NCBI GenBank assembly: GCA_963825865.1
Contig: CAWGVG010000003.1
Span: 96,001-160,000, forward strand
Length of the DNA: 64,000 bases
Direction: 5' to 3'
DNA from: an uncultured Nitrososphaeraceae archaeon
GTDB lineage: Archaea > Thermoproteota > Nitrososphaeria > Nitrososphaerales > Nitrososphaeraceae
Part shown: positions 1 to 19,059 of the stretch, piece by piece
Layout of the letters: the number at the start of each line of letters is the position of its first letter
Numbering within the stretch: the stretch's first letter is position 1
The notes under the pieces: model-generated
Told to the model about the DNA's origin: nothing
Database searches by the model: none
What the model saw: only the letters and a program-made list of their open reading frames with translations
Made by a program: the position numbers and the translations under genes

Positions 1-230
1 TTTTGGATGTATTGCAACAAGTCCATCATACAGCAGCATTTTGCAGTGTGCAATCATATCTTTATGCTATCTAGCGAAAGATACTGGAATTGCTGTCATA
101 TACTGCTCCCAATCAGTAAACACCTCTGACTTTTGGTATTTCTGTATTTGCTCTTTATAGTAGTACATGGCGCTCACCTATTTGGATCTTCGAGGACCTG
201 ATAAAGGATCGATATTGACAGTTTAAATTA
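1..230 (-). pseudogene. C-terminal fragment of Nitrososphaera-type terminase-large-subunit-like protein
   Basis: Minus strand reads SFIRSSKIQIGERH..YKEQIQKYQK..DWEQYMTAIPVSFAR*HKDMIAHCKMLLYDGLVAIHPK, which resembles the C-terminal region of this family; has a stop and a frameshift and runs off the window edge. Confidence 0.55.
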
Positions 231-1249
231 TATCATGAAAGCATGCCCTTCTTGATATGGATATAAATATATCAAACTTAGATATCGCAATTTTTCAAGT
301 CATCTTCGTGATACCTCTTAAGGCCCTCTGCTATCAAATAACCTTCTAACACATCCTTACTTATTTTGAATATTAAAGTAAATTTAGAAAAATAGGCTTT
401 AAAAAGAATCGTCATTAGCCGTGTTATCCCTTTGTCAATACGATATGGTACAATAGAAGTATAGCTTAGGGTATCGACCCCGTCTTACGCAATTTCTAAC
501 AAAGTGAGTAGGTATTTGTCAAATGCAAAAGTACTCCTAAGATACGCACTTCTGTCTGTAACTGAATCAGCAAGAAATAACCCAGAAAGATATAGATTCA
601 CAAGAAAACCCATCACAGGATGATGCTGAAGATGTTCTACTATCTTACTATCGACGATACGGTCTATGTGAACCTCCAACAACACAGTACAACGAATCAA
701 AGATTATACAACAAAAGAAGAAGAAGTAGATGAAATTAGTCTCAAGCATCTTAGGCAAATATGGCCGTATTCACATATCAAACATCTACATAATAGGTAT
801 GGTCGTAGGATTAGCTCTTGTTAACAGTCTATTTGTAATTCCGCTGCATGAACACTGTAGATTAGTCCAGACACTAATTTTTCACAAAATTGAAGATTAT
901 ATCAATAATACGAATATCTTATGGGCAGGCCAGCATCAAACATTCTACTGAAAGCAGATCCAAAAGGACCCTTATATAAAATCCAGAGTAACGCCGTTAC
1001 TCGTAAGAGCTGGAATTAATGCCTTCTGCAAAGTGTCTACGTGAACGATAAAGACAGGGTTCAGTACCATGACTTATTATTATCTACCTCAAATACCCGT
1101 AAACTCCGACGTCTTAGCTCCCATTTATCGGATATACAGGATTTCTTTTACGATACCCCAAATGAACCATACAAACCATTACTACCGACAATCCCCATGT
1201 TATCCCATCATAGGGACAAAGGAAGAATACAACAACAATACTTACTAAT

Positions 1250-1367
1250 TTGCAATTGCTTAATAATTAAGAAGAAGTTGGCTGAAGAATACGGCTTAGA
1301 TTTACCATCCAGTGTTGTCCTCGAACGAAGGGGCGAAGGAATACTCATCAGGAAACTCGAAATCTAA
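1250..1367 (+). pseudogene. AbrB/MazE-like DNA-binding protein remnant
   Basis: CLIIKKKLAEEYGLDLPSSVVLERRGEGILIRKLEI fits the AbrB swapped-hairpin pattern; the upstream part of ORF 1041..1367 looks spurious. Confidence 0.55.
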
Positions 1368-1507
1368 TGACATGCCTGATCACAGTGACAGGTATTGTGG
1401 TACTGAAAGTAACTAGTAGCAGGTGAAAACAAAGAGGGAGCAGAGTAGTAGCAGGTAATAGGCAGCTTTTGTTTTTATTTTTATATCGTATTTATTAAAC
1501 AAGTTAG

Positions 1508-1810
1508 ATGATCTTAACAACACAGCAAAGGGAAAGACTTGTTTTAGACCTTTACAATCAATGTAAAAACACACGCGGGATAGCTGAAGAAGACAGAATG
1601 TCATTTAGTGCTATAGGCGCTATTCTGAAAAAAGCAGATAAAGAAAAGGAGGCACAGGCAGAGCAAGAACGAAAGCTATCTCTAGCCTCCCAGACTTACA
1701 AATTATTTTCAGAAGGTAAAACTTCACTACGAGTGGCCATTGCATTAAACCTAAGAAACGCGCGAGTAACTGAATTATACAAGACGAACACCTTCATTTA
1801 TTCAAATTAG
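1508..1810 (+). CDS. HTH-domain protein typical of Nitrososphaera integrated elements, probably truncated
   Basis: RERLVLDLYNQCKNTRGIAEEDRMSFSAIGAILKK HTH, plus a second HTH-like segment (YKLFSEGKTSLRVAIALNL). Confidence 0.6.
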   Translation: MILTTQQRERLVLDLYNQCKNTRGIAEEDRMSFSAIGAILKKADKEKEAQAEQERKLSLASQTYKLFSEGKTSLRVAIALNLRNARVTELYKTNTFIYSN

Positions 1811-1836
1811 AAAAAAGAAAGAGGAGGTAGTAATTT

Positions 1837-4690
1837 ATGTTCGAAAACAAGAATCATGATAATCCAACTATAAAAGTAGTAGCAGATCAAGAAATAGAAA
1901 TAGGGGGGTCAAAGTCCAAACAATCTAGACCGCCAACTTTACCCCCCTCTTCGGCAGATAGTCAAGAAGATACTACAGCAGTAGTATTCTCAAGTCAGAG
2001 AAGCCAGTTTGCAGATTACACAACTTGGAAAGGCATCGAGAATAAGACCGGTATTGAGCGTGAACATGCCTATGATTTTGTTCTGAAGGAACTACTAGAC
2101 AACGCTGTGGACTATTTAGAAACTCAACATAACACAGTGCTGCTACTACTGCTGCTAACATACCACCACTAGAAATTCATATCACCATCAAGAAAACTAG
2201 ACCCGCATGAGAAGTTAATTCGTATAGTGGTCAGTAATTCCAACTATGATACTACTACTAGCAGAGTAGTAGTATAGCAAAGCCACGTTTTCCAAACAGA
2301 CGCTAAAATCTATCTTCGATTTTGATAGATACCATAGCAGTAAACGCAATCAGTTCAAAATAACAAAAGGTGCATTAGGCGATGCTTTGAAGGAAGTCCT
2401 GTGCATTCCTCACGTTCTAGCACATGACAATGAAATAAACAACTGGGATTATCCATTAAAGATATATTCAGCACAAAAAGTATTCCAGATTCACCTTGCT
2501 ATAGACAGAATCAATCAACTCATTCATTCACGAATACATGATGAAGTCGATGATGACGTAGAGGTTACATACTACGATAATACGAAAATAGAAGTCACTC
2601 TGCCGATAGTTATTGTTGAAGGCCAAAATAAAGACTATCTGATAACCGGACTATCAAACTATCTATGTAATTACGCAATCTTTGCAACCCACATAGGATT
2701 TTCATTTGAGGATGAAAGTGATAAAGAGAAAGGAGTCTTTATAGAATTCCCACAACTCCAGACGATCAATCCAAAATGGAAGAATCAAAGCAGCATTCAT
2801 TATTACAAGCGAAAGCAGTTCCATGATTTTATTTTAGGACTGGAAAATAATGACTCGATAATCTATAGCGTATTATATAAAACATTCAGAGAAGCAAGCA
2901 ACATGCGTAAAACCGAACTTACACAGATGACTGTTAGCCAGCTAAAACACTCTCCTGACTCACATAGATAGATTATATGATGAATTGCGAAACAGCATGA
3001 GTGCACCTACTGCTCTAACATTACCATTTGATATCACTAAGAAAGATGTTAGAGCACAGGCGTTAAAGCAAAGAGTTGAGCAGACACTATGGACATTTTC
3101 CAGAAATGAAATACAGATCAGCAACTGGCACTTATGTAGAAAGCGGTGGTGATCAATCTCAATTCCCCTTCTTCTTTGAAATTGCAATATTTCATGACGT
3201 ACAATATCTGCGTGGTAATCTGGCATTCAAACAGGCCTTAAATTGTTCAGCTATACCAAATACTGGCTGGACTGTGTTTGGTGGAGATGAATTGTTTGAA
3301 TGGGTTACTCCAGGCAGCAAATATATACATACATCAAACACAATTCAAGATATTTTTCGACATTACGGCTACTCATATGATAATAAAAAATGCAAAAAGC
3401 CACACAGTCTGATAATTGCAAACCTGATATCTCCAAAGATAGATTATCAAAGTTACGGGAAATCCAGAATAAATTTCAGGCCATTTGCTGATGTTGTAGC
3501 GAAAACTACTGTATTAGCTTGTATGGGCGGTGGAGCGTGCTTCAGATGGTAAACCAAAGAAAAAAGATGTTTTATTGGAAGTCTTGGAAAAAAGAAAACA
3601 GAAATGGGAATCAATGGATGCTGCTATCAAGATTAAAACATTGGTGGACTCAATCCGATGTATTCTATGCAACCCGTAAGATGCTAATAATAGAGTATCA
3701 TTACGCAAATGAAGAGATTGACAGGGATTACATAACCGGATTAATTAAAGAAATGTGTGAAGATAAATTAGGTGTAAAGCGTGAAGACATTGGAATTTTA
3801 GCTGCTGACAGAGCACAGCTATACTTTAAAGGTAAATGGATGGATGTCGGTCTCAAAGAGATTGAAGAGCAAAGTCTCTATGGTATAGACATGCTAATTA
3901 TCGAAAAAGAAGGTATTGCAGAACAGTTAGCAATATTTCCAGATCAGAAAGGAATTGCATTACTTAATACAAGAGGATTTTTGACAGAATATGCTGAAGT
4001 TCTATCTAAGAAATCCGAGAAAGAGGGATGCAACATTGCTATCTTAACTGATTTTGATGTTTCAGGTTTGATTTTGGCAACTAAAGTCCCTGGAGCTTAT
4101 AGAATAGGAATTGACTTTGAAACATTAGATAACCTTGGACTGGATATCGAAGATGTAGAGGAGGAATACAAGCCTAAGGAAATCATTTAAAACCATTACA
4201 AGAAGGCGGAGAACTTGCTGATGTGTATCCACAAGATTGGGTGGATTATGTTGAGAATAGACGTGTAGAGATTAATAGCGTCGTAACTGAACTAGATGAT
4301 AATGCTAAATTCTGGGAATGGATTGTTCAAAAACTACGAGACCGATTTGATACACGAAATTACAACCGTGCAGTTGATATTCCTGAATATATGATGCCTA
4401 AATGTCTTGAATCTCTTAACGAAAAGATTAGAGAAGATAGGATAGTCGCAATACTGAAAGAACAGCGTTTGAAAAATTACAGGACCGTCTCTCTGATATT
4501 GGCCCTGGATTTCTATTTGACCGAACTGATAAGGTATTATTGAATAAAGGCGAGAGATGACATTATGACAATCAGTAAATACGAGCAAACGCTGGCTGAT
4601 CAGTCACGACATATTATTGAATCCGATAAGACCATGAAACCAATCTTGGATAAAATTGAAGATTTGGATAGACTACATGTAGGACAGCTT
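1837..4690 (+). CDS. Type IIB topoisomerase-like B-A fusion (GHKL ATPase + 5Y-CAP/TOPRIM), broken into several ORFs by indels
   Basis: GHKL motifs KELLDNAVD and SSKRNQFKITKGALGDALK; putative catalytic Tyr in TQSDVFYATR; TOPRIM IIEKEG and LTDFDVSG, then RIGID and RRVEINSV. ORFs 1837, 2387, 3076, 3519, 4223 and 4565 abut in shifting frames. Confidence 0.7.
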
Positions 4691-5244
4691 AGGTCTCTTG
4701 TAATGCTGTGCATTAGGCATAGCTGCTCGACTGATCAGCATTTAGCTCTTTGGCTATCTCGTAGCCTTTCACTAAAGTACCTCCTCATAGCATGCATATT
4801 TTCAGATATTATTGTATATACTCAATCGTTTCAATCCTATCCTAAACAAAAGAAGGCTATCATATGAAGAAATGATTGGAATAGGAGTAGTAGCTTCGAA
4901 ATGGGAGGAAAGGTCGTACTCACTCCATAGTGAGGATGAAATACAATATAAGCTGAGTGTCCCTCTGTTTATCGAAGAAATTAGTAATATATTTTATAAT
5001 CTCTTATTTCTGGTAATGTATAGCCTTCTCTAGCGAGAAGTATAATTTTAGCTCTACTTTGTGTCAGGATTATTATCTAGAAGTTCGTACAACTCTCTCT
5101 TTCTTTTCCTCCGATATCCTTCTGACAGGTGTATATCTCACACAACTGACTAGACTCTAGCAAGCTAACGCTATAACGATAAGATAGAATTTGTCAAAAA
5201 GGCAAGTACTAGTTTACCTTAATTGTCAATTGACTAACTTACAA

Positions 5245-5365
5245 TGCTGTTTCATTCATGTATTTTTTGATATTGGCCTGGCTTATTTGCAATATCCTGG
5301 ATATCTCTGAGTGATTATGATCTTTGACTTGCTATCTCTAATACCTTACTTCTACTACATTCCAG
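5245..5365 (-). pseudogene. N-terminal HTH fragment of the small protein that usually accompanies the terminase-like gene
   Basis: Minus strand reads ECSRSKVLEIASQ(fs)DHNHSEISRILQISQANIKKYMNE. Confidence 0.45.
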
Positions 5366-5507
5366 AGTATTATTATTCACACGTGATGACAGAACTATAT
5401 ATGTCAGTCGTAGTACAAACGACTTACATACACACATACATATGACAATTTTTATTTGTCTGGGAATGTAGTATTATCATCACCAGTATATAATATGTCT
5501 AAAAACC

Positions 5508-5775
5508 AATTTTCGATTACCAGGAATTATTGTATGAGGCTCTGCTTACATCAGACTTTTGCAATCCGCTGAACCATGATTTCAAAGACAAGCACCTGTG
5601 GATAAAGAAGGCAACAGGATTAGGGGTAACAGAGTTCTTTCTCAGGTTCATGGCATGGCTTTGCTTGAGAAATAATGATTATAGAAATTGACAGATGTGC
5701 ATTGTAACGGGTCCTAACATAGACATTGCCATCAAGCTAATCAAGAGAATGAAGTGATTATTTGAGCGAACTTGA
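5508..5775 (+). pseudogene. N-terminal ATPase fragment of terminase-large-subunit-like protein
   Basis: PIFDYQELLYEALL..HDFKDKHLWIKKATGLGVTEFFLRFMAWLCLRNNDYRN*QMCIVTGPNIDIAIKLIKRMK*LFE: variant Walker A, two stops; absent from the ORF track. Confidence 0.65.
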
Positions 5776-5932
5776 TAAAACAAAGACAGAAGCATAATAC
5801 TATTTCAAACAACAATATCTATCTACTTAATCTTTATAGTAGTAAGAATTACTATTAATTTAAGAGAAACTAAGTATAGAAACAATGTTAGAAATGCAAA
5901 TATACTAACAATAATTACTAAGATATCTATAT

Positions 5933-6139
5933 ATGGAATATATAAAAAAAGGAATGAAGCTTGGGATAGCTGCCATCATAATATCCGTTTGTTTATTGTT
6001 ATTAATAGGCAGTTTTATTATAAATACAAAGATGCAAGCGTTAGCACAGCTACCAGACCATTTATACACACCACATACAGGAATTGTACATCAGATTCCA
6101 GGGAGAGTGACTCTTATTCCAGTATCGCCAAATAAGTAG
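5933..6139 (+). CDS. small secreted/membrane hypothetical protein, possibly a fragment
   Basis: N-terminal hydrophobic segment followed by an ALAQ cleavage-like motif. Confidence 0.4.
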   Translation: MEYIKKGMKLGIAAIIISVCLLLLIGSFIINTKMQALAQLPDHLYTPHTGIVHQIPGRVTLIPVSPNK

Positions 6140-6230
6140 AGTCTTCTTCTATGTCTTCAGAACTGAATAAACGAGAATAAAAATCAGGCATCCTCTTCAA
6201 ATACTAAAGAGCACATCAATTTAATGCATT

Positions 6231-6530
6231 ATGGCAACGATAATAGCTTTTGTATTGTCTGTTGTTTTAGTATCATTTTTAGTTGCTGGTTGCTTTGAAA
6301 ATACTGCAAAGATACAACAAGCGAAGGCACAGGATTACAATAATAATGGCACATTGAATGTAGGTTCTCCTCAGAAAATGACTATTTCAGGACTGTCTAA
6401 GCCTCCTGTGCTATCACCCGAAAAGAAGCAAGCGTTAGAACAAGATCAAGCAAAAACTCATCATAGTCCTCAATTGCCATCCTCAGATCAAGCTATTCTT
6501 GGCCCAATACTTGGAACACAGGCACACTAA
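6231..6530 (+). pseudogene. truncated secreted protein; paralogue of 21975-22420
   Basis: Signal peptide-like start; nucleotide similarity to the inverted copy near 22 kb. Confidence 0.5.
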
Positions 6531-7112
6531 AAAGTTTCCTAGTCTTTTTTCATAGGAATAAGGAATAAGTCCATGTGTCATACGTCACCTAGTGATTTTT
6601 CAACTTAATTTAGTTGAAGATATAAGACACCAGATTCAGGTTTTCATTGACACTTATAATATAATAGATAAGTTAAAGGCATTATATTTTAAACCTAACC
6701 TAATGAGATTGACCGACCCATGATCTCTGGTAGTTTTTTAGAAAAACTAAAAGCAAGAGTTCCAGATGTGGAAATGCGGCGATACAAGGATTCTGGCATG
6801 AAGGAAAATGTATGTTGAGTTTCAACTTCTAAAGTCTGTCGCATACAAAAACTACAAAAGGAATTGGAAGAAAAAGCAAGATACTAACGGTAAATGAAAA
6901 AATATTACTAATAGAAACAGAATAATGTGACTCTCCTTCTGCTGATACTGTTGCTGGTAACCTTATAAAGATCATCTATTAGCGAACGTCTTAACCAGGG
7001 CGCCCATATATTAAAGGTATAGGAGTTGAAATCAACCCAAAAAATTTCCTGAGTAAATGCGATAAACCGTTTATATGTGAGAATGCTCAATTTTTTGTGA
7101 GAAAACATTCTA

Positions 7113-7928
7113 ATGGAAAGGATTGTGCTGGACAGCGATATCAGATATATTGATGGAAATGGGAATTTGTTACGTAGTAGAACGGAATTCTCTGTTTCAA
7201 AGATCTTACAATTTATGGAACGAAGCTATGAATATAATACGAAAGTGAACTTTGACGATAAGACTTTTACCACAATCGATTTCAAAACTGGTGACAGATA
7301 TATTGAAGTTATCGATTCCGAGGCTGACGCTGACAAATTGAAACTGATACGAAAGAATCTACCCGAGATTAATATTATTGGTGTTGGTCACTCAAAGTAT
7401 GCGGGTAAAGTGAATGAACTAGACTCATTCTTTTTCTTAAATTCTGATGACGAAAATCAAACTGCCTCTATATTTATAGAAGATCAGTCGCTTGCTTTTG
7501 ATTATGCACATATTTTACCCTTGGTGGAAAAATGTTCTATTCTGCATGGACATACTTCTACTGTTATGGTTGAAATAATAGGTAATCTGAACAATAACAA
7601 TCTTGTCATCGATTTTGGCCATGCCAAGAGGATAATTAAAGAAGCATTAAATATCATTGACCATAAATTCTTTATTAGCAAAAAGTATTTACAGAAAGAA
7701 GATGATTTTCATTATCATATATCATTTGAAGGACCAAAGGGTTATTTCAGTCTGCAATTGCCAAAATTGACAACTTTTCTCCTCTCAGGAGAAGCTACCG
7801 TAGAAAATCTTTCAACAGAAATAATCAAGTTGCTTGCGCCGAAAATGCCACCAAATGTAGAAGCATTAGGTGTGTATGTTTACGAAGGCGTCAACAAAGG
7901 AGCGCACATAATAGCCGAAATAAAATAA
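7113..7928 (+). CDS. queD: 6-carboxytetrahydropterin synthase (QueD/PTPS family) with extra N-terminal domain
   Basis: FDYAHIL..CSILHGHT, IDFG..K, DHKFF and ATVENL motifs; adjacent to queC. Confidence 0.85.
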   Translation: MERIVLDSDIRYIDGNGNLLRSRTEFSVSKILQFMERSYEYNTKVNFDDKTFTTIDFKTGDRYIEVIDSEADADKLKLIRKNLPEINIIGVGHSKYAGKVNELDSFFFLNSDDENQTASIFIEDQSLAFDYAHILPLVEKCSILHGHTSTVMVEIIGNLNNNNLVIDFGHAKRIIKEALNIIDHKFFISKKYLQKEDDFHYHISFEGPKGYFSLQLPKLTTFLLSGEATVENLSTEIIKLLAPKMPPNVEALGVYVYEGVNKGAHIIAEIK

Positions 7929-7937
7929 GATTGAGTA

Positions 7938-8594
7938 ATGAAAGGATCAAAGGCACTTGTAATGCTGTCTGGAGGGTTAGACTCTGCAACTTGTCTTTTC
8001 TGGGCGAAGAAGAAATTTCAAGACGTTTCTGCCATTACTTTCAATTATTACCAAAGAATTGAAAACGAAAGGAAGGCTACTATAAAATTATCGAATAAAG
8101 TCAATGTCACGAATTTATTAGAGATTGATATTCCTTTTATCAAAGAATCTTCGGAATTTCCTGACGGCCGTCATCTCCAATCGATTCGTGATACCAGAGA
8201 ATCATCATATATTCCTGCAAGGAATCTAATATTTTATTCTATAGGAGCATATTATGCAGAATTTCTTGGTATTAAATGGATCATAGGCGGACATAATAGC
8301 CATGATGGGAAATTTTACAAAGATGCAACAAAAAACTACATACAAAAGATAAATTTCCTATTCAAGCAAGGCCGTATATGTTGCAATGATGAACCATGTG
8401 TAATCGTTCTCCCATTGGTTGAAATGGATAGAAAAAAAATAATCAACCTCGCAATTGAATTAAATGTGCCCCTAGAATTGACCTGGAGTTGCCATAATAA
8501 AGGCCAAAAACATTGTGGACAATGTTACTCGTGCGAACAGAGACTTGAAGCCTTCAATTCATTATGTATAAAGGACCCAGTTTTTTTTACATAG
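7938..8594 (+). CDS. queC: 7-cyano-7-deazaguanine synthase
   Basis: SGGLDS PP-loop, YIPARNLIF, TWSC..HCGQCYSC zinc site. Confidence 0.95.
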   Translation: MKGSKALVMLSGGLDSATCLFWAKKKFQDVSAITFNYYQRIENERKATIKLSNKVNVTNLLEIDIPFIKESSEFPDGRHLQSIRDTRESSYIPARNLIFYSIGAYYAEFLGIKWIIGGHNSHDGKFYKDATKNYIQKINFLFKQGRICCNDEPCVIVLPLVEMDRKKIINLAIELNVPLELTWSCHNKGQKHCGQCYSCEQRLEAFNSLCIKDPVFFT

Positions 8595-8879
8595 CGTACA
8601 TTCAATGCTGCAAGTAGGTGTGGTGGTTTATTTATATAGCTATTGTTTAAATTCGTATCTGTCGAGTGATTTAACAGAGGACTACCCACCTATCAACTAT
8701 ACTTGCACTCCGAAGTATAGCGCAAGGAGATTTTTAGTATTCTACCTGATGTAGATAAAGCAAATCTATTCTTATTCTTTTTTGACAATATCAAAAGAAA
8801 TTATTTAGAAATATTCATCCCGACAAAATTATTCTGACAACTGAATAAAACAACAATAAATTATAACTTAATAGTTTTT

Positions 8880-9155
8880 TTATGATTTAATTATTTTACT
8901 GTCACTGGGAGAATGAAGGAGGGAAATGTATAGTCTATCGTAAAGTCTAGACAGTATTTTTTGCAAAAATATAAAAGTAATGATAGATGGCGCTATCAGA
9001 GCAATCCACATCGAATTCGAGGCATATTCTTTAAACATTTCAGAAGCAAAAAGTAACATTGTCAGGAAAATAGAAATACCCATGCTAAACAAGAAGAACG
9101 ATGCTGCTAATATCAATATCAGAACGTGCAACAACATCAATAATCGATTAGCCAT
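8880..9155 (-). CDS. small two-TM membrane protein
   Basis: Two hydrophobic helices; divergent from valS. Confidence 0.5.
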   Translation of the reverse strand: MANRLLMLLHVLILILAASFFLFSMGISIFLTMLLFASEMFKEYASNSMWIALIAPSIITFIFLQKILSRLYDRLYISLLHSPSDSKIIKS

Positions 9156-9220
9156 TTACAGAATAGTGTAATCATACTAACGTTAATAACCGTATATGTG
9201 CGCAATTAACTAAAATACAA

Positions 9221-11571
9221 ATGGACCCGAAAATTGAGGCAAATCATGGAATCCTATGTTGAGAGACCCTAAAAAGTGGGAAGCGAAGATATTTACGAAT
9301 TTTCAACAATACAGAAACGTGCTTTTGTGATTGATTCGCCACCACCCTACCCCTCTGGGCGACCTTGGCATATTGGGGCTGGGCTCACTACGCACAAATA
9401 GACATGATCGCTCGGTTTGCAAGAATGCAGGATATAATGTTATTTTTCCTATAGGCATAGATAGAAATGGTTTGCCAGTCGAAATTTATACAGAAAAGAA
9501 ACATAAAATCCGAATGCGACAGATGAAGAGGGAAGCGTTCCTTGATCTCTGCAGAGTTGCTCTAGATGACCTGGAAACTGAAATGATTCAGATAATGAAA
9601 AATATGGGTTTGAGTTGCAACTTCAAACAATATTACCGTACCGATTCTGATGAATTTCGGGCTTTAACTCAGAACACATTTATTGATTTATGGAAACGTG
9701 ATCTTGTATACCTGGCAAATAGACCAAACAACTATTGTTCTGACTGCGGTACAACGATTGCTGATGCAGAAATCATCTATGAGGACTTACCTACAAAGCT
9801 TGTTTACATGAATTTTAAGGTAAGGAAACTGATGAGAAAATTGTAATTGCGTCTACCAGGCCTGAGTTATTGTTTGCGTGTCAGTGTATAATTGTAAATC
9901 CCAAAGACGGGCGCTACCTACGATACAAGGAAAACATGTCAGATTCCTATATTCGGAAGGGAGGTGAAGATTTTACCGCATCATTCAGCAAAACCAGAAT
10001 TTGGTTCGGGTGTAGTGATGGTATGCAGTTACGGCGATCAAAATGATGTCCAGCTATTTCGAGAACTAGGTTTGAAAGAAATTGTCGCCATCAATGAGAA
10101 TGGAATTACTACTCCAGCAGCTGGTACCATATTCTAATCTAACGCTAAAAGAAGCAAGGGCTAAAATAATTGAGGATTTGAATACTGCTGGCCTTATCGA
10201 TAGAGTTGAAGATATTGTGCACAGGACTCCATTATGCGAACGGAGTAAAACCCCCATTGAAATTATACCAATGGAAGATTACTATCTAAAACAACTTAAG
10301 TACATTCCAAAATTAAAAGAACTCGCAAGAAAATTACATTCTATCCTCCAATGCATAAACAGATTTTAATTAATTGGCTAAATTCTGTATCAATTGATTG
10401 GCCGATATCAAGACGACGCTTTTACGGCACAGAAATTCCAATCTGGTATTGTAATAACTGTCAAACCCCAAACCTTCCAGAATCAACCATCAGACAAATA
10501 CTATAGGCCATGGAAGGAAAAACCCCCATTTGAAAAATGCATGCAATGCGTCTGTACCGAATTCACAGGTGAGGATAGAATTTTTGACACTTGGATGGAT
10601 TCGAGTATTACCCCACTCTTCATTTCAAAATACAAACGAGGATCAGAAATTATACAACCATCTGTACCCTACAAAAATACGACCCCAGGCCAAAGATATC
10701 ATTAGAACTTGGCTCTACTATAGAATGCTACGTTGTTTCCAGCTGACTGATAAAGTGCCATGGTCAAGTGCGTGGATTATGGGATATGGCGTAGATGAGA
10801 AGGGCGAAAAGATGAGCAAAAGTAAAGGAAATGTTATTGATCCTTTTCCAATCATACATCATTATGGTGCAGATGCTTTCCGATTCTGGTCTGCAAGCGA
10901 AGGTAGTTTGGGCATGATTTCCGGTGTTCCGAGCAGAGAATCGCCGGTTCACAGAAATTCTTATCAAAATTGTGGAATATTGGTAGGTTTATTTCATCGT
11001 TTGATATTATAGCAGAGACTCCTGCGCAACTTTTTGCAACAGACGAGTGGATTATCTCAGAACTGTCAATACTGATAGAGGATTGTAAAAAGGGCTATAA
11101 TGATTTCAATTTTTTTGTACCATCAAATGCAATTAGAGAGTTTACTCGGAATCTATTTGCATCACATTATATAGAGATGGTAAAAGGTCGTGTGTAGGTT
11201 CAACAGATGAATCTGGACATAAGTCAGCCATATTTACCTTGCACAAATGTCTATCCACAATTTTATTATTACTTGCGCCAATTTGTCCCTTTATTACAGA
11301 AGAATTGTGGACAACAATTTATTCTGCCAAGAGTATCCATTTACAGCACGTACCTCAATCACAAATGAACTATAATGAGTCTACAAAACATACTAAACAG
11401 ATTATGGATTTCAACTCGATTGTGTGGAACAAGAAAAAAGAGACTATTTCAAAGGGAACTGGAAAAGCACTTTCTCTGAAAGACTCTATAGATATCGCTG
11501 TTCCTGCTGATTTGGAGCCATTTAAAGAAGATCTTCAGATTATGCATAATTTGAAAAGTGAAAGTAGATGA
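9221..11571 (+). CDS. valS: valine--tRNA ligase, with multiple apparent sequencing frameshifts
   Basis: PPPYPSGRPWHIG (HIGH variant), STRPELL, EFGSGVVMVCSYGD, DWPISRRR, FDTWMDS and KMSKS found across shifting frames. Confidence 0.92.
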
Positions 11572-11730
11572 ATGTACAATTTTTTATGAACATTCTTCAT
11601 TCGATCTTTTTGAAGTGTAAAGAGTTTCGTGATCAAATTGTCGTTAATAAATCTGACAACATTAATGAGTTTTATTCCTGAAACAACCTGAAACAAACAA
11701 CAAAAAAACATCACACTTGGTATAATATGA

Positions 11731-12120
11731 TCATTGAGTCAAGTTTGCTCTATTTAAGAGTTCCAGCGTATCCTCAGCGATATCTATTGCGGTGTGTGAA
11801 TCAACATTCGGTTCCAAAGTAACTAAAAATATTTTTTTATGCAGGTAATACGTAATTATAGAAATCTTTTCACGCTCTACATATGCAAACCTTGCTTTAC
11901 CCATACTGTCATCAAATCTTTGCCTCATTGATTTTCGAAGAGCCGTTTGAGCTAAATATAATTCCTCGTTGGTCTGATCTACAACTGAATCAATGCCGTT
12001 ACGCATGCCTCCAGCAATTAGTAATCCTGTATCATCTATGACTCCTGCATAACGTATATCATCGTGTAAAGCAAAGATTGCTTCACATAGTTTTTCGTAA
12101 TCCACAATATAAGTAAGCAA
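11731..12120 (-). CDS. thaumarchaeal roadblock/profilin-like protein (DUF6659-like)
   Basis: IRYAGVIDDTGLLIAGGMRNG...YVEREK pattern. Confidence 0.7.
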   Translation of the reverse strand: MLTYIVDYEKLCEAIFALHDDIRYAGVIDDTGLLIAGGMRNGIDSVVDQTNEELYLAQTALRKSMRQRFDDSMGKARFAYVEREKISIITYYLHKKIFLVTLEPNVDSHTAIDIAEDTLELLNRANLTQ

Positions 12121-12315
12121 AATCTATCTATTGAATGTTGAGTCAATGTTTGCTTATTATAGATTATAACTTGTTAATTCTTTTTTCATCCAACATATTA
12201 AAGTTAGAAATTGACTCTAAGGTATGTGGGAGAGGGAGATAAAAGTAAATGTTATTTGAAATAAGTAAAGTGAGAATAAATGATTATTGTAAGAGGAGAG
12301 GTGTATGTAGGAAGA

Positions 12316-13295
12316 ATGGTATATAGCCAATATAAAAGTATGAATAAGAGAATGATAGAAAGCAATATATGTAATAGTTAGAACTATAGGTAAGTGATAT
12401 TGTTAGAATAATTAGATAAGAAGATTAATGATATGATTGATAGAAGTAGATGTTAATTGTAGAGAATAGTAAAAAGATTAAGAGAAGAAGGTATAAAAAG
12501 TATAAGAATTGAATGTAAAAAGATATATAATATTTTAAAAAAAACAAGTATAGAGATAGAGAAAAAGGATAATGAAAGTAAGAAAAGTTAAGGGTTTTGG
12601 TTATGAATAGTTAGTAAATATAGTTAATGAGAGTTTGAATGTAGAATATAAATATAATAGGTATATTAGTAAGAAAATAGTTTAGAATATTATAGTTAGA
12701 TAAGAATTGGTTGATGTAGAGAAAAAGATGGTAAAAGAATAAGAATTATTTGAGAGAGATAAGAATGATGAATTAATATAGGTTGATATTATAAGATTTA
12801 ATGGATTAATAATATTAACAATGGAAGAAGAATATTATAGAAAGTTATGGGCTAAAAGACAGGATAATGAAAGAGATGATAAAGTGATAGAGACTATGAA
12901 GAAAATATATGGATAGAAATAAGATTATTTTTTGATTGATAATGGTAGTTAATTCAGTAGAAGAAATTATGTTATGAAAAGATATTGTAAATAGTATATG
13001 AGTGAGAAATATATCTGGATATAGGTATATCACAATTAAATAATGGGTAAACTATTAAAAGCTTAGAAAGGATAGAAAAGATTAATTATCGAAAGAACTA
13101 GGATGGAGTAAAGATTAAAAGTAGGTAGATGAAAGTATATCAATATATATTGAATAAGTTTAAAAATGGTAAGAAAATATTAAATAATGGTTAATATAAA
13201 GAAGAAAGATAATAAGAAAAGGAGATAATGAATGTTATAAAAGAATAGTAAAAGTAATTAAGATTGATAAAATAAGAAAAATAAAAGTGAAGTAG
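12316..13295 (+). mobile_element. IS481-family (rve/DDE) transposase relic with near-total loss of + strand cytosines
   Basis: Manual translation gives RSRC*L*RIVKRLREEGI (HTH), ISKKIV*NIIVR, FERDKNDELI*VDI (12749-12790), LIDNGS*F (12932-12955) and YHN*IMGK (13028-13051). These match FER.xPxELxQxD, TDNGSQF and HPQTxGK once Cs are restored. Confidence 0.8.
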
Positions 13296-13449
13296 TGGGA
13301 TAAAAAGTGTAAAGGTAAAAGGGGAGAGGGAGAGCAGGGAGAAATGAAAAAATACAGGAAGACAGTCTCGAGGTAGGATAGAGTATATCCTGTTCTATAA
13401 TAAGAGATAAGGCAGAGGTCTTAAATTATATTTAACAATATTTAGCACG

Positions 13450-14347
13450 TCAAAATTTAACTATATTACGGTACATTTGATATCTTTCCTGAACATCTTC
13501 GTTATTAATCGCAAGCAATTTTCTTACTCCGAAATCTTCTACAGCAAATGCACCCATAACATTCCCATAAATCATTGCCTCTTTCATCCTATTGGCATTT
13601 GTGCCATTTTGCTTAGCGATATATCCTATGAACCCTCCAGCAAAAGAATCTCCTGCACCCGTAGGATCCATAATTTCTTCCAAAGGGTACGCTGGAGCTG
13701 GAAAAATCGTATCACTAGTGAGGAGCAGACGCACCATGCTCGCCTTTCTTGATTATTGCAAACTGTGGTCCCCAAGACATTATCATTTTTGCACATTTGA
13801 TTAAGTTGTTAGTCTTGCATAAAAGCCGAGCCTCTTCATCATTAATCACCACTCCATTAACCTTGCTCATCATTTTTATAATATCCTCGCGTTTGTTCAA
13901 GATCCAATATTCTATAGTATCACATACTATGAGTTTTGGATTTGAAAAGTATTCGAGTATCTTCAGGTTTTGGATTGGGTCATTGTTTGCAAGGTACACA
14001 TATTCAGAATTGACATATTCGTCAGGGATGATAGGTTCGAAATTTGCTATTACATTTAACTCAGTTTTATTGGAAATTCTATGGGAAAGGTCATATTCAA
14101 ACGAAGAATCATAATGGAATGTTTTATCCCCTTGTTTGGTAATAATGCCTCTGGTATCAAGTCGGTTGTCAAGGATCTTTCGATATTCAGATGGAAAATC
14201 TGAACCTACAACCCCGACTATAGAAGTATCTGTAAATAGGCTAGAGGAAAGTGAAGCATACGTGGCTGCCCCTCCCATAATCTTTGTTTCGGTCTTAAAA
14301 GGAGTTCGAGTTGTATCTAGTGCAATAGTTCCAAAGACTGTTAACAT
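13450..14347 (-). CDS. PfkB-family carbohydrate/nucleoside kinase, one frameshift
   Basis: GGAATYAS, INDEEA, KKGEHGA, DPTGAGDSFAGG. Confidence 0.9.
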
Positions 14348-14443
14348 AGTTGAATTAATTTTCTCTATGAATAATAAATGCTTGCCAAACCTATTTTATC
14401 AGCATGATTAAATAACTACTAAGAGAAGACTGCTATTGAATTA

Positions 14444-15007
14444 ATGCAATTAATAGTGGCAATAACTGGAGGTTCAGGTGTCGTATATGGGATTAAAACA
14501 CTTGAGATCCTTAGGGATCTAAAAATGGAAACCCACCTCATTATCAGTGAATGGGGCGAGAAGAACATTAAGATTGAAACTGACAAGTCCATTGATTATG
14601 TCAAATCCCTTGCCACAAAATTCTACGACAAGGATAACATGGCTGCTGCAATTTCAAGTGGTTCTTTTAAGACAGACGGTATGATAGTCGTTCCATGTAG
14701 CATGAAAACATTATCAAGTATTGCAAATGGCTATGATGAGAATCTAATTTCAAGGGCAGCAGGAGTATGCATTAAAGAATCTCGAAAAATAGTTATTGTT
14801 CCAAGAGAAACTCCTCTTTCAAAGATTCATCTTCAAAATATGATAAAGCTGGTTGAAATAGGGGTTATTGTATTGCCAGCGATGCCTGGTTTTTATCACA
14901 AACCAAAAACTATAGATGATTTAATAATTCATATTGTAGGAAAGATTTTGGATCAATTTGGGATTGAACACCATACTTTCAAAAGATGGGGAGGAGGAAA
15001 TTATTGA
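14444..15007 (+). CDS. ubiX: flavin prenyltransferase
   Basis: ITGGSG, ISSGS, PCSMKTL, PRETPL, PAMPGFY. Confidence 0.95.
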   Translation: MQLIVAITGGSGVVYGIKTLEILRDLKMETHLIISEWGEKNIKIETDKSIDYVKSLATKFYDKDNMAAAISSGSFKTDGMIVVPCSMKTLSSIANGYDENLISRAAGVCIKESRKIVIVPRETPLSKIHLQNMIKLVEIGVIVLPAMPGFYHKPKTIDDLIIHIVGKILDQFGIEHHTFKRWGGGNY

Positions 15008-15049
15008 TTATACCGAGTATTAGTGCTATTTTTGAAGCAAGTCATTTGG

Positions 15050-15216
15050 AACATCGACTATTATACAAATGGGGTTTCAGTCCTAAAGTAAAGAATGAGA
15101 TTTGTTAATGCTACATCAAAGGAAGAAAAAGGCAAATTTAGAAAAAAGCTAAAAGGATAATCTCGCATATACCTAAAGGATTCACTGTCGCTGTTGCTGC
15201 TGATTAATCCATCTTT
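15050..15216 (+). mobile_element. IS630-family transposase fragment
   Basis: RLLYKWGFSPKV..RMRFVNATSKEEKGKFRKK, then an A6G slip site, then AKRIISHIPKGFTVAVAAD*SIF (remnant of the DES motif). Confidence 0.65.
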
Positions 15217-15712
15217 ACAATACTCATTGAGAAGCCCCCATTGCAAGTTAACCATATGTGAACAAGATATAATCAACCGAATGAGATGGTAACGTATAAT
15301 ATTTTGCAATCTCGAAACAAAAGAATTATGTCATTTGAGTGAAAATATTGTAATGCAAACCTGACGTAGCATCTTTAGCCAAAATAATTCTAAAGTCTCT
15401 TTCGCTTGCCTCATATATGGTTGTTCTCGGGCAGTTAGGAAAGTTACAACCGTATACTACGACCGTCTAACATTCAGCTCATGTAAATGCTTTTCCAATA
15501 ACGTATTGTAAAATGCTCCCCACCTGGACTTGTACATTATCCATTCCATATGACCGATCTGTTGAAGGTGACCAGAAAGGAGCAGGTCTGAATCCAATCT
15601 ATTGACAGAAGAGGGCTTGAGCTCTCGTGGATGGCCTAATGAGCTGGTGATTCTGTCATTTTTGCCAGTAACCCTGTTGAGGTTGGGTCTGCATTTGCTC
15701 TGCAATTTGCTT

Positions 15713-15904
15713 TTACTGTTGCTCCAATTGTAGAAACTGGTTACACAGAACGTTAAGCGCTACCTTGGTTAAAGCTGCAGGCTTGGGCGATTTTATCTGG
15801 CCCTGGGCAAATAATTTTTTAGCGATATCCTCTATAACGGGGTAATCCTCATTCCTTACCCGCATAGATATGATGACTCCATGTAGTTGTTTTTCTTTAG
15901 ACAA
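15713..15904 (-). CDS. small putative DNA-binding protein (RHH-like start)
   Basis: VIISMRVRNEDYPVIEDIAKKL beta-strand/helix pattern; repeat cluster lies directly upstream. Confidence 0.4.
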   Translation of the reverse strand: MSKEKQLHGVIISMRVRNEDYPVIEDIAKKLFAQGQIKSPKPAALTKVALNVLCNQFLQLEQQ

Positions 15905-15954
15905 TATAATACTTATACAGATATTTTATATATAAAAATCTATCGAAAAATGTT

Positions 15955-16225
15955 TCTGGAAAAAACTGCAAAAGGCCTTGGAATGAAGTGCATTCCAATG
16001 GAAAAGCCCTTGGAAAACTTTTGTCTGGAAAAATTAATGACATTTACCTCATGTTACCTTGTCACTTATTCCAAAGCGTTTTACACGTCTTTTTCCACAC
16101 TTTTCCAATGGAAAAAATACTTTTCCACGAGTTTGTATTACAAATGTAAACAATTGTAAACAACGGGAGTAAATTGTAAACAATTGTATACAGCTGTAAA
16201 CAGAATCAGTCTACATGTTTACAAT
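15955..16225. repeat. cluster of TGGAA(AA)/(TT)TTCCA motifs followed by 10-bp-phased TGTAWACA repeats
   Basis: TGTAWACA at 16145, 16155, 16175, 16185 and 16195, inverted copy at 16216; about ten TGGAA/TTCCA copies in 15957-16128. Confidence 0.7.
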
Positions 16226-16936
16226 AGCAAAAGCAGAAAAAAAAGAAAGTGCTTTTGCCATTATTCTTTCAAGCAAATGCTATTGTAGATGGCATATTTG
16301 TTGTATGCTGTTCCTTTCCGCTCGACATCCTTCAAGCACCGCTCCCAATTTTTAAAACTCCATTTCTTTCGGCATTTTTTAGGGAATCACCTTAATCTTT
16401 TATTTTCTTGGAATTGTTTGAGCTGGAGATATTTATGATTCACAAGAATAAAAAATAATAATAAAATAAATAACAATCTACTATCTAGAGAATTTAATTT
16501 ATAGGAAATTCTAATCTACTAAAAAAGGAAAAGCGACGTCTTTAGGCTCGGCTATTATATAAGACATAATTTGGGTTTACCGCCTAGAATAGAGATTTAT
16601 TACAACAGTATCTAAACGTAGTTTATAAAGTAAAATTTTCATACCAAATATGAACTATCGATATCACATTCCAACCTAAGAAGATCGTTGATATCATAGT
16701 ATCATTCTCCTTCAGAAGATGCAGCATCCATAGTCTTTACGATTCCCTGAAGGTGTTTCTCCATCATCTTCCCCTTTTTTGTAGATACTGGCTAGAATAT
16801 ACTACTTCTTTGGAGGATTTATTTTTACAATATAATATACCAAAAAAAACCACTTAATTCTTTCTATCCTACAATAATACTTATTATCAAAACAACTTGC
16901 CAGTCCTTTTTTTGCACATAATGACGGTTATTTTAC

Positions 16937-18331
16937 TTATTGTTGCTCCTTCTTTTTAAAAGCTCTTTTCCTTTTAGCACTTGTTCCAGTTTCCCTTGTG
17001 TCAGCAGAAACAATTTCGATAAGTTTCGCTTTTCTATTTGAGTCTCGTTTGGGTCTTAGCAGCCTGCCAAGCCTTTGAATAAACTCCCTACTACTTCCGG
17101 TTCCACTTAGAATTATACCTAATTCCGCATCTGGAACGTCCACTCCCTCGTCTAAGACTTTAGAAGTAACTATTGCGGTATATCTTCCGTCTCTAAATCC
17201 CTGTAAAGTATCCTGTCTTTCTATCTTGCTTGATTTGTGAGTTATACAAGGGATTAGAAACCTGTCTGATATCTCATATACCAATTTGTTATGTTGGGTA
17301 AATATTATTAATTTTATTCCTTTATTATCTGAAAGGATTTGCTTTAGCTCTTCTAATTTGGATTTGCTATTTAGCGCTATGTCCATGGCTTTGTTTCTTG
17401 CAAGTATAGCCTGTCTTGCAATAGGGCTTCTCCCGGACATCATTATTAATTTATGAAAGGCGATAGGTAGGTTCATTCTTAATCCTAACTTCAGCAAAGA
17501 AGTCTGGTAGATACCAAAGCTCCTTTTGTACTCTTCAAGTTCTTCTGGCCACATATTTACCTGTCTTCTTTCAATTTCATAAGAAGCAAGATGTTTTGCT
17601 TTGGCAAGATCACTACTCTGAGCTTCAAATACTACACCACCAACAAGCCTTGGAAATTCTTTATGCATGTTATCCTCTCTTTCGATTGTGGCTGTTAATC
17701 CTAGTCTGAATGGAGATGCTAACTGTTCTGCTATCGATCTATAGCCTGGTGCTCCTAAATGATGTACTTCGTCAAATATTATAAAAGCAAATTTGTTACC
17801 TATGTTTGCTGCTCGTATGTATGCGGAGTCATACGTAGATACAGTAATTGCTTGAATGTCATCTGTTCCTCCACCCAAATTTCCAATTTTTATATTTGTA
17901 AAATATTTTGATAGAACTGAATTCCATTGATCCATAAGATCAATAGTTGGTACTATGACTAGTGATGCAGAGTTTACTATTTCTATTGCCTTGACTCCTA
18001 TGACTGTCTTACCTGAACCTGTGGGTAATACTATACAGCCTTTCTTACCTGCTTTAACCCAGCTGTCAAGTGCTTTTTGTTGGTAATCTCTTAGAGAGAG
18101 ACTGCTATGGTTGTTATCTATTAAAATATTTGGACAAGGCACAAGATCTAAAACATGATTATCGTCATATTCTATTTCGCTCTGTTTTAAATACTCTATA
18201 ATATTTTGATAATACAATGCCTGTGCTCTTAGATGATTTGTCCTTGGATCAACTGTAGCAAAAGGTATGTGAGCAATACCGCCTGTTATTAGTATTGTAC
18301 CATTATCATACCTTAAAACTGCTTTGAGCAT
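16937..18331 (-). CDS. XPB/Rad25-like SF2 DNA helicase
   Basis: LRDYQ, LPTGSGKT, DEVHH, GLTAT, LDEGVDVP, QRLGRLLR. Confidence 0.9.
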   Translation of the reverse strand: MLKAVLRYDNGTILITGGIAHIPFATVDPRTNHLRAQALYYQNIIEYLKQSEIEYDDNHVLDLVPCPNILIDNNHSSLSLRDYQQKALDSWVKAGKKGCIVLPTGSGKTVIGVKAIEIVNSASLVIVPTIDLMDQWNSVLSKYFTNIKIGNLGGGTDDIQAITVSTYDSAYIRAANIGNKFAFIIFDEVHHLGAPGYRSIAEQLASPFRLGLTATIEREDNMHKEFPRLVGGVVFEAQSSDLAKAKHLASYEIERRQVNMWPEELEEYKRSFGIYQTSLLKLGLRMNLPIAFHKLIMMSGRSPIARQAILARNKAMDIALNSKSKLEELKQILSDNKGIKLIIFTQHNKLVYEISDRFLIPCITHKSSKIERQDTLQGFRDGRYTAIVTSKVLDEGVDVPDAELGIILSGTGSSREFIQRLGRLLRPKRDSNRKAKLIEIVSADTRETGTSAKRKRAFKKKEQQ

Positions 18332-18474
18332 TCTTTTCTTTACAATATTATATACAGAGAACAGATTAAAAGCCTTGAGCTTTGGTTGTTGCTCAAATAT
18401 TAATTAAATTAAATTTACAAATAGTGGGCATTACCCGGCCTTTTTGCTAATACATGTATGAATTACAATTGGTT

Positions 18475-19059
18475 TTAGATGTGTGAAATGTCTTCGTCTT
18501 CCCATAATCTCATCCTATCCAGTTTATCCTTCCTTCTGGCCTCTTCTAGCATCTTGTAAACATTTTTGTGCGACCTTCCTTTTGAAAGCATAGTTACTGC
18601 ATCTGTAGCAAGTTTAATTTCTTTGAATGTTCCTATTAGTCCAACAGTATGACCATATACTGAAATATAGGCACCAGTTAGGTCTTCAATGTTTTTCCTA
18701 GATTTACCTTCTTCTCCGATTATCCTTCCTTTAATTCTCTCCATTGAATTACGTGATTTTCCAGCATAGTCTCTTAAATCTATTAATTGAAAGGTCTCTT
18801 CTTCTTCCTCAAGTAGTCTATATGCGCGTCGGGGTGAAAATCCCTTTGAAATAGCAGAGATTATCTCTACTGCCTTGAACGGTTCAATTTTCGTGGATGG
18901 TTCCTGAGGTCCCGAGGAAATTATAGCATCACCAGTTTCACTATCTATTTCAACCATGACATTACATTTTTCTTGAATTTCTTCCTTTACTTTACCATTT
19001 TTGCCAATTATCACACCTATTCTATCCATAGGAATTCTTACTCCTTGTTGGAAACTCAT
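18475..19059 (-). CDS. KH-domain pre-rRNA processing protein (Dim2/Pno1)
   Basis: IGKNG and GRIIGEEG KH GxxG motifs; next to Rio1. Confidence 0.9.
   Translation of the reverse strand: MSFQQGVRIPMDRIGVIIGKNGKVKEEIQEKCNVMVEIDSETGDAIISSGPQEPSTKIEPFKAVEIISAISKGFSPRRAYRLLEEEEETFQLIDLRDYAGKSRNSMERIKGRIIGEEGKSRKNIEDLTGAYISVYGHTVGLIGTFKEIKLATDAVTMLSKGRSHKNVYKMLEEARRKDKLDRMRLWEDEDISHI

Follow-up and report, generated by a model that had tools for sequence, protein, structure and literature searches.

A stretch of about 1.1 kb in this archaeal draft genome has lost nearly all the C of one strand, and the question raised by this locus is whether such a loss took place in the DNA of the organism or was produced when its sequence was read and assembled. 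The stretch lies at positions 12221-13330 of the window, by which we mean the whole 64,000 nt of contig C3 that were analysed. The first-pass annotation had read it as a hidden IS481 transposase with erased coding-strand cytosines and had proposed a transposon-targeted hypermutation or modification system. The analysis confirms the observation and supports an IS481-like identity; it does not support an anti-transposon hypermutation system. In our reading, the C-less tract is probably a faulty consensus stretch in an error-prone draft of the long-read type and not the sequence of the organism, and the true locus most likely carries an ordinary IS481-like element, as found on contig C50 of the same assembly.

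Composition and identity of the C-depleted tract

The exact base count of window 12221-13330 (1110 nt, + strand) was A 533, T 314, G 245 and C 18, in a genome with a C content of 17.8% (884,427 of 4,978,018 nt); the binomial probability of at most 18 C in the tract is 4.9e-68. GC skew, computed in 200-nt windows, was 0.64-1.0 across the tract and between -0.3 and +0.3 on either side, the 99.9th percentile of the absolute skew being 0.57 genome-wide. The exact count and the GC skew confirmed what had been obtained by hand from the letters, i.e. the 18 C in 1110 nt, the boundaries and the abrupt return to normal composition in the flanks.

We also scanned all the 62 contigs (4.98 Mb) for 300-nt windows with at most nine C. 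The sole C-poor locus of the assembly was C3:108188-109412, corresponding to window 12188-13412. The earlier remark that the IS630 and IS6 relics are not C-depleted was checked in this way too, indirectly only, the genome having no other C-poor window. At the 200-nt scale, nine regions showed an absolute GC skew of at least 0.7; the tract is one of them and the other eight are C-rich and G-poor. These eight were inspected by eye and set aside as ordinary A/C-rich coding repeats. Among them, C23:45834-46390 is the only G- and T-poor window of the genome: it is a long coding repeat of A and C only, with ACA/CCA units and a Thr/Pro-rich linker as its product, and is likewise ordinary. The contig pairs C22/C4, C14/C47 and C57/C7, also taken from the genome-wide scans, were set aside as their divergence is ordinary.

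A simple repeat was ruled out for the tract, in agreement with the first reading of the letters, as TRF (minimum score 30) returned only three two-copy rows of 19-38 nt. The frame-1 translation of the tract contains 46 stops and gives the same reading that had been quoted for a frame at about 12566-13085.

We used this read-through frame (with X at the stops) as a tblastn query against its own genome and obtained the C50 copy, with 68% identity over 178 aa. Precisely, C50 carries in the position of the tract an element with normal composition, with the same flanks on either side and with an intact transposase of 264 aa (L001 13102-13896, L001 being contig C50). Four NCBIfam families matched this intact copy; the best was IS481 (NF033577, E 2e-33, profile positions 26-274 of 284) at 116.1 bits, below the curated cut-off of 224 bits, and the runner-up was IS3, at 28 bits. 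The matches to Pfam rve (E 1.5e-7, 32.1 bits) and HTH_32 (29.6 bits) were also under the respective cut-offs of 32.6 and 33.7 bits. By eye, the two D motifs of the catalytic triad are visible and the E is not evident.

The ends of the element (TGGTA...TTTTACA, L001 12897-13990) are common to L001, L007 and L010; L007 and L010 are at other sites, and L007 is 99.3% identical to the C50 element. On C50 there is a perfect 17-nt direct repeat (L001 12880-12896 and 13990-14006), of which 16 nt represent the target-site duplication. Hence defined ends, a target-site duplication and, in other metagenomes, an empty site are all found for the element. Imperfect subterminal inverted repeats (13 of 17) were seen by eye only, and the repeat tool reported no terminal inverted repeats for the element.

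Compared with the IS481 family, the element has in common the best NCBIfam model, the weak rve and HTH_32 matches, the TG...CA ends and the flanking direct repeat; it differs in its scores under the cut-offs, in the 16-nt length of the duplication and in the presence of KLSNAQ where the catalytic E would be expected. As judged from its sequence, we considered the element as IS481-like and not as a certified IS481 member, since the scores are below the curated cut-offs. To this extent the earlier assignment to IS481 is supported, tblastn having found the intact C50 copy and NCBIfam having ranked IS481 first. In IS481 and IS3 transposases, the catalytic E stands in the motif following HPQT.GK. 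Here, the motif after HPQTMGK is LSNAQKGLKRF, both in L001 (13690-13740) and in its relatives L007, L008, L010 and L011, and it is kept across copies that are 75-99% identical; this conservation suggests that the IS lineage may have a non-canonical third catalytic residue.

In the window, the C-depleted copy of the 1094-nt element occupies positions 12240-13320 of the + strand, as given by the alignment to L001 12897-13990, and the remnant of the transposase frame, full of stops, occupies positions 12433-13231 of the same strand, as given by the translation and by tblastn to C50. Also on the + strand, the left copy of the target-site duplication is at 12225-12239, with 15 of the 16 nt of the C50 direct repeat (the last G is missing), and the right copy is at 13321-13334, with its first bases garbled (a T is lost), on the basis of the alignment and of the empty-site joint from 12239 to 13334.

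The insertion site is flanked by genes for a DUF6659 protein and a PfkB kinase; farther away there are genes for a flavoprotein, an XPB-type helicase and a class I aminoacyl-tRNA synthetase (aaRS). No deaminase was found among the nine neighbouring ORFs scanned (DUF6659, PfkB, Flavoprotein, XPB-type helicase, class I aaRS fragments, KH protein). The PfkB-family kinase gene beside the element (window 13450-14347) is broken up in both versions, with two frames in C3 and three in C50, and the break points differ. The XPB/Rad25-type repair helicase (ResIII, Helicase_C and XPB_DRD; window 16937-18331) is 3.6 kb from the tract, and its gene is intact in C3 and broken in C50.

Substitution spectrum relative to the second version of the region

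Contig C50 (19,179 nt) is colinear with C3:95346-114483, a region comprising the first 18.5 kb of the window (1-18483), with an overall identity of 94%, and represents a strain variant assembled together with C3 or else a segmental duplication. The divergence between the two versions is a mosaic, in which 500-nt bins range from 0.2-1% to 10-20%. The element is at the same site in both of them, a site that is empty in three other metagenomes.

We considered the C50 copy of the element as the reference and aligned the C3 copy to it column by column. Out of the 173 C of the element, 155 were altered (73 to A, 65 to T, 6 to G and 11 deleted, the deleted ones mostly within C runs) and 18 were kept, and no C was gained in the C3 copy. 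The other bases were kept at about 96%, with changes at 4 of 429 A, 12 of 226 G (hence 214 kept) and 21 of 264 T; these included 13 T>A and 7 G>A, and seven of the nine inserted bases were A. As a whole, 37 of the 919 non-C positions were altered, mostly toward A, which is about four times the divergence of the flanks (~0.9%). A clustering of the non-C changes near C was considered and rejected, their frequency being 4.3%, 5.0%, 3.8% and 3.3% at a distance of 1, 2, 3 and >=4, respectively.

The tract ends within a few bases of the element ends on both sides. This coincidence of bounds bears out the earlier view that the substituted tract matches the element, and the same alignment agrees with the other inferences made from the letters, namely that the motif mismatches fall in C-containing codons, that they imply both C>T and C>A, and that roughly nine in ten C are affected. 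Tabulating the substitutions against an intact homologue had also been proposed as a check, and the resulting spectrum is C-specific and on the + strand.

Among the 144 C substitutions there were 79 transversions and 65 transitions (55% transversions). The changes were spread evenly over the three codon positions (39/39/45). The wrong base tracks the 3′ neighbour of the altered C: CA gave 51 T and 19 A, and CG, CC and CT gave 54 A and 14 T (Fisher p 5e-10). There was no preference for the 5′ neighbour, all four being affected alike. Moreover, from left to right along the tract, the changes shift from C>T to C>A (p 0.010 and 3e-4 within contexts), and in the last ~30 nt T also becomes A or is lost. 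The copying of a neighbouring base (dislocation) was rejected, as the wrong base was equal to the 3′ neighbour in 29 and to the 5′ neighbour in 44 of the 144 cases, with no excess.

The list of differences between C3 and C50 also shows scattered C-to-G and C-to-A differences on the + strand of the flanks (window 5690-18150). In the stretches of low divergence outside the element, we counted 18 + strand C>G or C>A versus 3 of the complementary type (G>C or G>T), an asymmetry with a two-sided binomial p of ~0.0015 (hand calculation). The C-loss therefore leaks kilobases beyond the element. As a further strand-asymmetric bias toward A in C3 relative to C50, window 2000-4500 contains 52 G>A versus 17 A>G and 29 of the complementary C>T.

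State of the assembly and copies in other data

The assembly demonstrably carries consensus errors, as seen in the frames of rpoB, in the indels of the aaRS gene, in the differences between contig ends and in a 111-nt poly-A run. The rpoB gene (RNA_pol_Rpb2_6 domain, C44:25097-26220), which is single-copy and essential, is in three pieces that lie in different frames and contain TGA stops. In C3, the class I aaRS gene (window 9190-11568) falls apart into several short frames, with 11 in-frame stops, and in C50 it is a 796-aa open frame. Substitutions between the C3 and C50 alleles of this gene are at third codon positions in 159 of 257 and 69 of 125 cases, which is indicative of purifying selection, and the alleles also differ by 30+12 = 42 indel columns; since the substitutions are third-position biased, the breaks of the C3 gene look like indel errors.

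Overlapping contig ends differ by about 2-5% (2.2-4.4%), with a Ts/Tv close to 1; indel events, many of them of 1 nt, occur roughly once per 100-150 nt. For example, the C28/C61 overlap has 94 Ts, 108 Tv and 91 indel events in 9479 columns. At C15:192826-192900, about 100 nt of complex sequence of the C60 paralogue correspond to an A-rich string, in which C, T and some G are read as A, several G are kept and the C-rich parts are deleted. At C15:196547-196659, the 111-nt poly-A run is found in place of ~230 nt of complex intergenic sequence, which is normal in the C60 paralogue; this run is almost certainly an assembly or basecalling fault. The pyrimidines-to-A pattern of C15:192826-192900 is common to the right end of the tract, and neither of the two C15 loci is an IS. 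As regards coding density, 63% of the bases are in frames of at least 100 aa, a value inside the span of 51-94% given by eight 20-kb control stretches from two complete relatives.

We then considered copies of the element in other genomes and in public sequencing data. A search of 238 genomes of the family gave matches in 19, this genome included. The copies compared were 15 longer loci from 11 of these genomes and five metagenome contigs; nine short matches were left out. None of these 20 other copies was C-depleted: their C content was 13.5-18.3%, and gains and losses of C by substitution were balanced. A 27-nt stretch common to the C3 and C50 copies was found at five loci in metagenome contigs, all with normal composition, and had no match in the genome contigs scanned.

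For window 12100-13450, 24 runs were listed, and four of them, all metagenomes (X1, X2, X6 and X10), were compared with the locus. The C-less form was present in none of the four. In X1, X2 and X10, a contig joins position 12239 to position 13334 with one G between them, which corresponds to the empty site with a single copy of the duplication and near-identical flanks; in X6 and X10, the normal C-containing element was found. No listed public run contained at least half of the sampled words of window 12100-13450, 20 listed rows shared a small part of it (share <=0.14), and no RNA run matching it was listed.

Explanations of the tract and comparison with known systems

What counts for an artefact is the set of errors in essential genes, the two collapses to A, the drift toward A along the tract, the C-loss in the flanks and the absence of the C-less form from independent data. 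A likely course of events is as follows. The element is a repeat in the assembly graph, and its C3 copy would have been filled from a single read, or very few, all in the same orientation and produced by a platform that was probably of the long-read type. In the faulty read, the signal of one base (+ strand C, or its partner G if the - strand was read) would nearly always have been called A or T, with calls drifting toward A along its length. The filled copy may then have been left uncorrected, as the reads bearing the element would fit C50 better and molecules with an empty site cannot correct an insertion; outside the element, the errors of the same read would have been outvoted mostly, but not wholly. 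Repeat filling with no later correction would make the fault begin and stop at the element ends, and the filling step would account for the sharp bounds, for the 4% error at non-C positions and for the residual C-loss of the flanks. In fact, the scattered same-strand C>G and C>A changes kilobases beyond the element indicate that the fault is not confined to it.

Some observations stand against this course of events. We know of no failure mode that turns 90% of one base into A or T and leaves the other three ~96% right. At normal coverage, polishing should have mended one bad read. Bounds at the element ends are predicted directly by an element-directed process, whereas an artefact needs the extra assumption of repeat filling. 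Furthermore, PMC8486125 describes the usual substitution errors of nanopore reads as mostly transitions, with A/G foremost, and 79 of the 144 C substitutions of the tract are transversions. In the literature searched, no paper was found on C-less tracts, on hypermutated IS in archaea or on a basecaller failure of this kind.

The sharp bounds, with the duplication retained, would follow at once from a real hypermutation of one strand in situ, in which new synthesis of one strand, over exactly the length of the element, failed to pair correctly at G:C, the mutated strand being then fixed by the next replication. We consider such an event unlikely. It would also explain why one strand only is affected (95% of G kept, no gains of C) and why C runs show deletions, as expected from skipping, and the even spread over codon positions indicates changes of a mutational and not of a selected kind. 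The left-to-right drift fits 5′-to-3′ synthesis of the + strand, and a possible route is copy-out replication, primed from a flanking 3′-OH after nicking by the transposase, with almost no dCTP or with template G that was damaged or modified. Copy-out replication is the mechanism of the IS3 family, which is related to IS481, and it would fit both the direction of the drift and the bounds. However, dCTP starvation leads mostly to G:T mispairs, hence to transitions, and C>A changes about as frequent as C>T fit neither this nor deamination; the replacing base also tends not to be that of the 3′ neighbour, contrary to what dislocation mutagenesis would give. Separate explanations would be needed for the same-strand C-loss outside the element and for the A-collapses at two non-IS loci, none of the 20 other copies is affected, and the literature searched gave no relevant report; to our knowledge, no such hypermutation process is known in prokaryotes. 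As for the APOBEC/RIP-like anti-transposon deamination suggested in the first-pass annotation, it fits poorly with the excess of transversions over transitions, with the lack of 5′ context and with the normal state of the 20 other copies, and the A-collapses and the frameshifts of essential genes in the same assembly also speak against an anti-transposon system. The dependence of the wrong base on the 3′ neighbour, as a k-mer-dependent caller would give, is instead what would be expected if a dense modification or damage of one strand over the element (on every + strand C or every - strand G) had been miscalled by a signal-based basecaller, so that the sequence would be normal and the chemistry real. 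We regard this as unlikely too, and slightly more so: it agrees with the involvement of one base on one strand, with the neighbouring bases being mostly right and with the bounds at the element ends, but nothing in the analysis shows a modification, opposite-strand reads would outvote the errors unless the coverage was single-stranded, and both the low-level C-loss outside the element and the A-collapses elsewhere point to a general fault of signal or consensus. Moreover, we know of no citable precedent for the modification of one strand of one IS copy. An earlier option of this type had been a dense modification miscalled by a long-read basecaller, and its miscall part is nearer to the faulty consensus that we prefer.

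Should the tract be real DNA, an archaeal transposon would for the first time have been seen to undergo hypermutation of a single strand within the bounds of the element, with a C-to-A/T spectrum that is unlike any described deaminase system and fits no known enzyme; the element would have been inactivated in a single event, and a search for a new route of genome defence or repair would be opened. If the tract is the faulty consensus stretch that we consider probable, draft long-read genomes can contain repeat copies with a systematic miscall of one base over a kilobase or so, and such tracts mimic hypermutation very convincingly. In scans of MAGs for composition anomalies, the first steps should be to search the essential genes for frameshifts and the assembly itself for a normal copy of the tract.

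The tract can be compared with some known systems. Repeat-induced point mutation (RIP), in fungi, is confined to C:G to T:A transitions, which affect both strands and are preferentially at CpA. In common with RIP, there is a duplicated mobile element full of C changes and stops, and CpA accounts for 51 of the 65 C>T changes; unlike RIP, 79 of the 144 substitutions are transversions, G is kept and the second copy, on C50, is untouched. A RIP-like process is not supported, as 65 C>T stand versus 73 C>A and 6 C>G, with 214 of 226 G kept. APOBEC3 and AID produce C>U transitions in ssDNA, with a preference for the 5′ neighbour. Their action on retroelements resembles the tract in that the loss of cytosines is strand-restricted, dense and limited to the element; here, in contrast, there is a 3′ effect in place of a 5′ effect and half of the changes are C>A, and an APOBEC/AID-like process is not supported by the 55% of transversions and by this context. 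The bases rewritten by diversity-generating retroelements (DGRs) are adenines, and the rewriting is limited to a short variable region within a functional gene. DGRs share with the tract a base-specific, strand-specific and tract-bounded rewriting of one copy relative to a template copy, whereas here the cytosines are lost over the whole IS and the gene is destroyed. The nanopore errors described in PMC8486125 are dominated by transitions and tied to motifs, whereas in the tract nearly every C is affected over 1.1 kb, with A as the outcome in half of the substitutions. With long-read consensus and basecalling faults, which include unpolished repeat copies, stall-type homopolymer runs and strand-specific miscalls at modified bases, the tract shares its restriction to one strand and one base, its bounds at a repeat, and an assembly with frameshifted essential genes and a 111-nt poly-A run.
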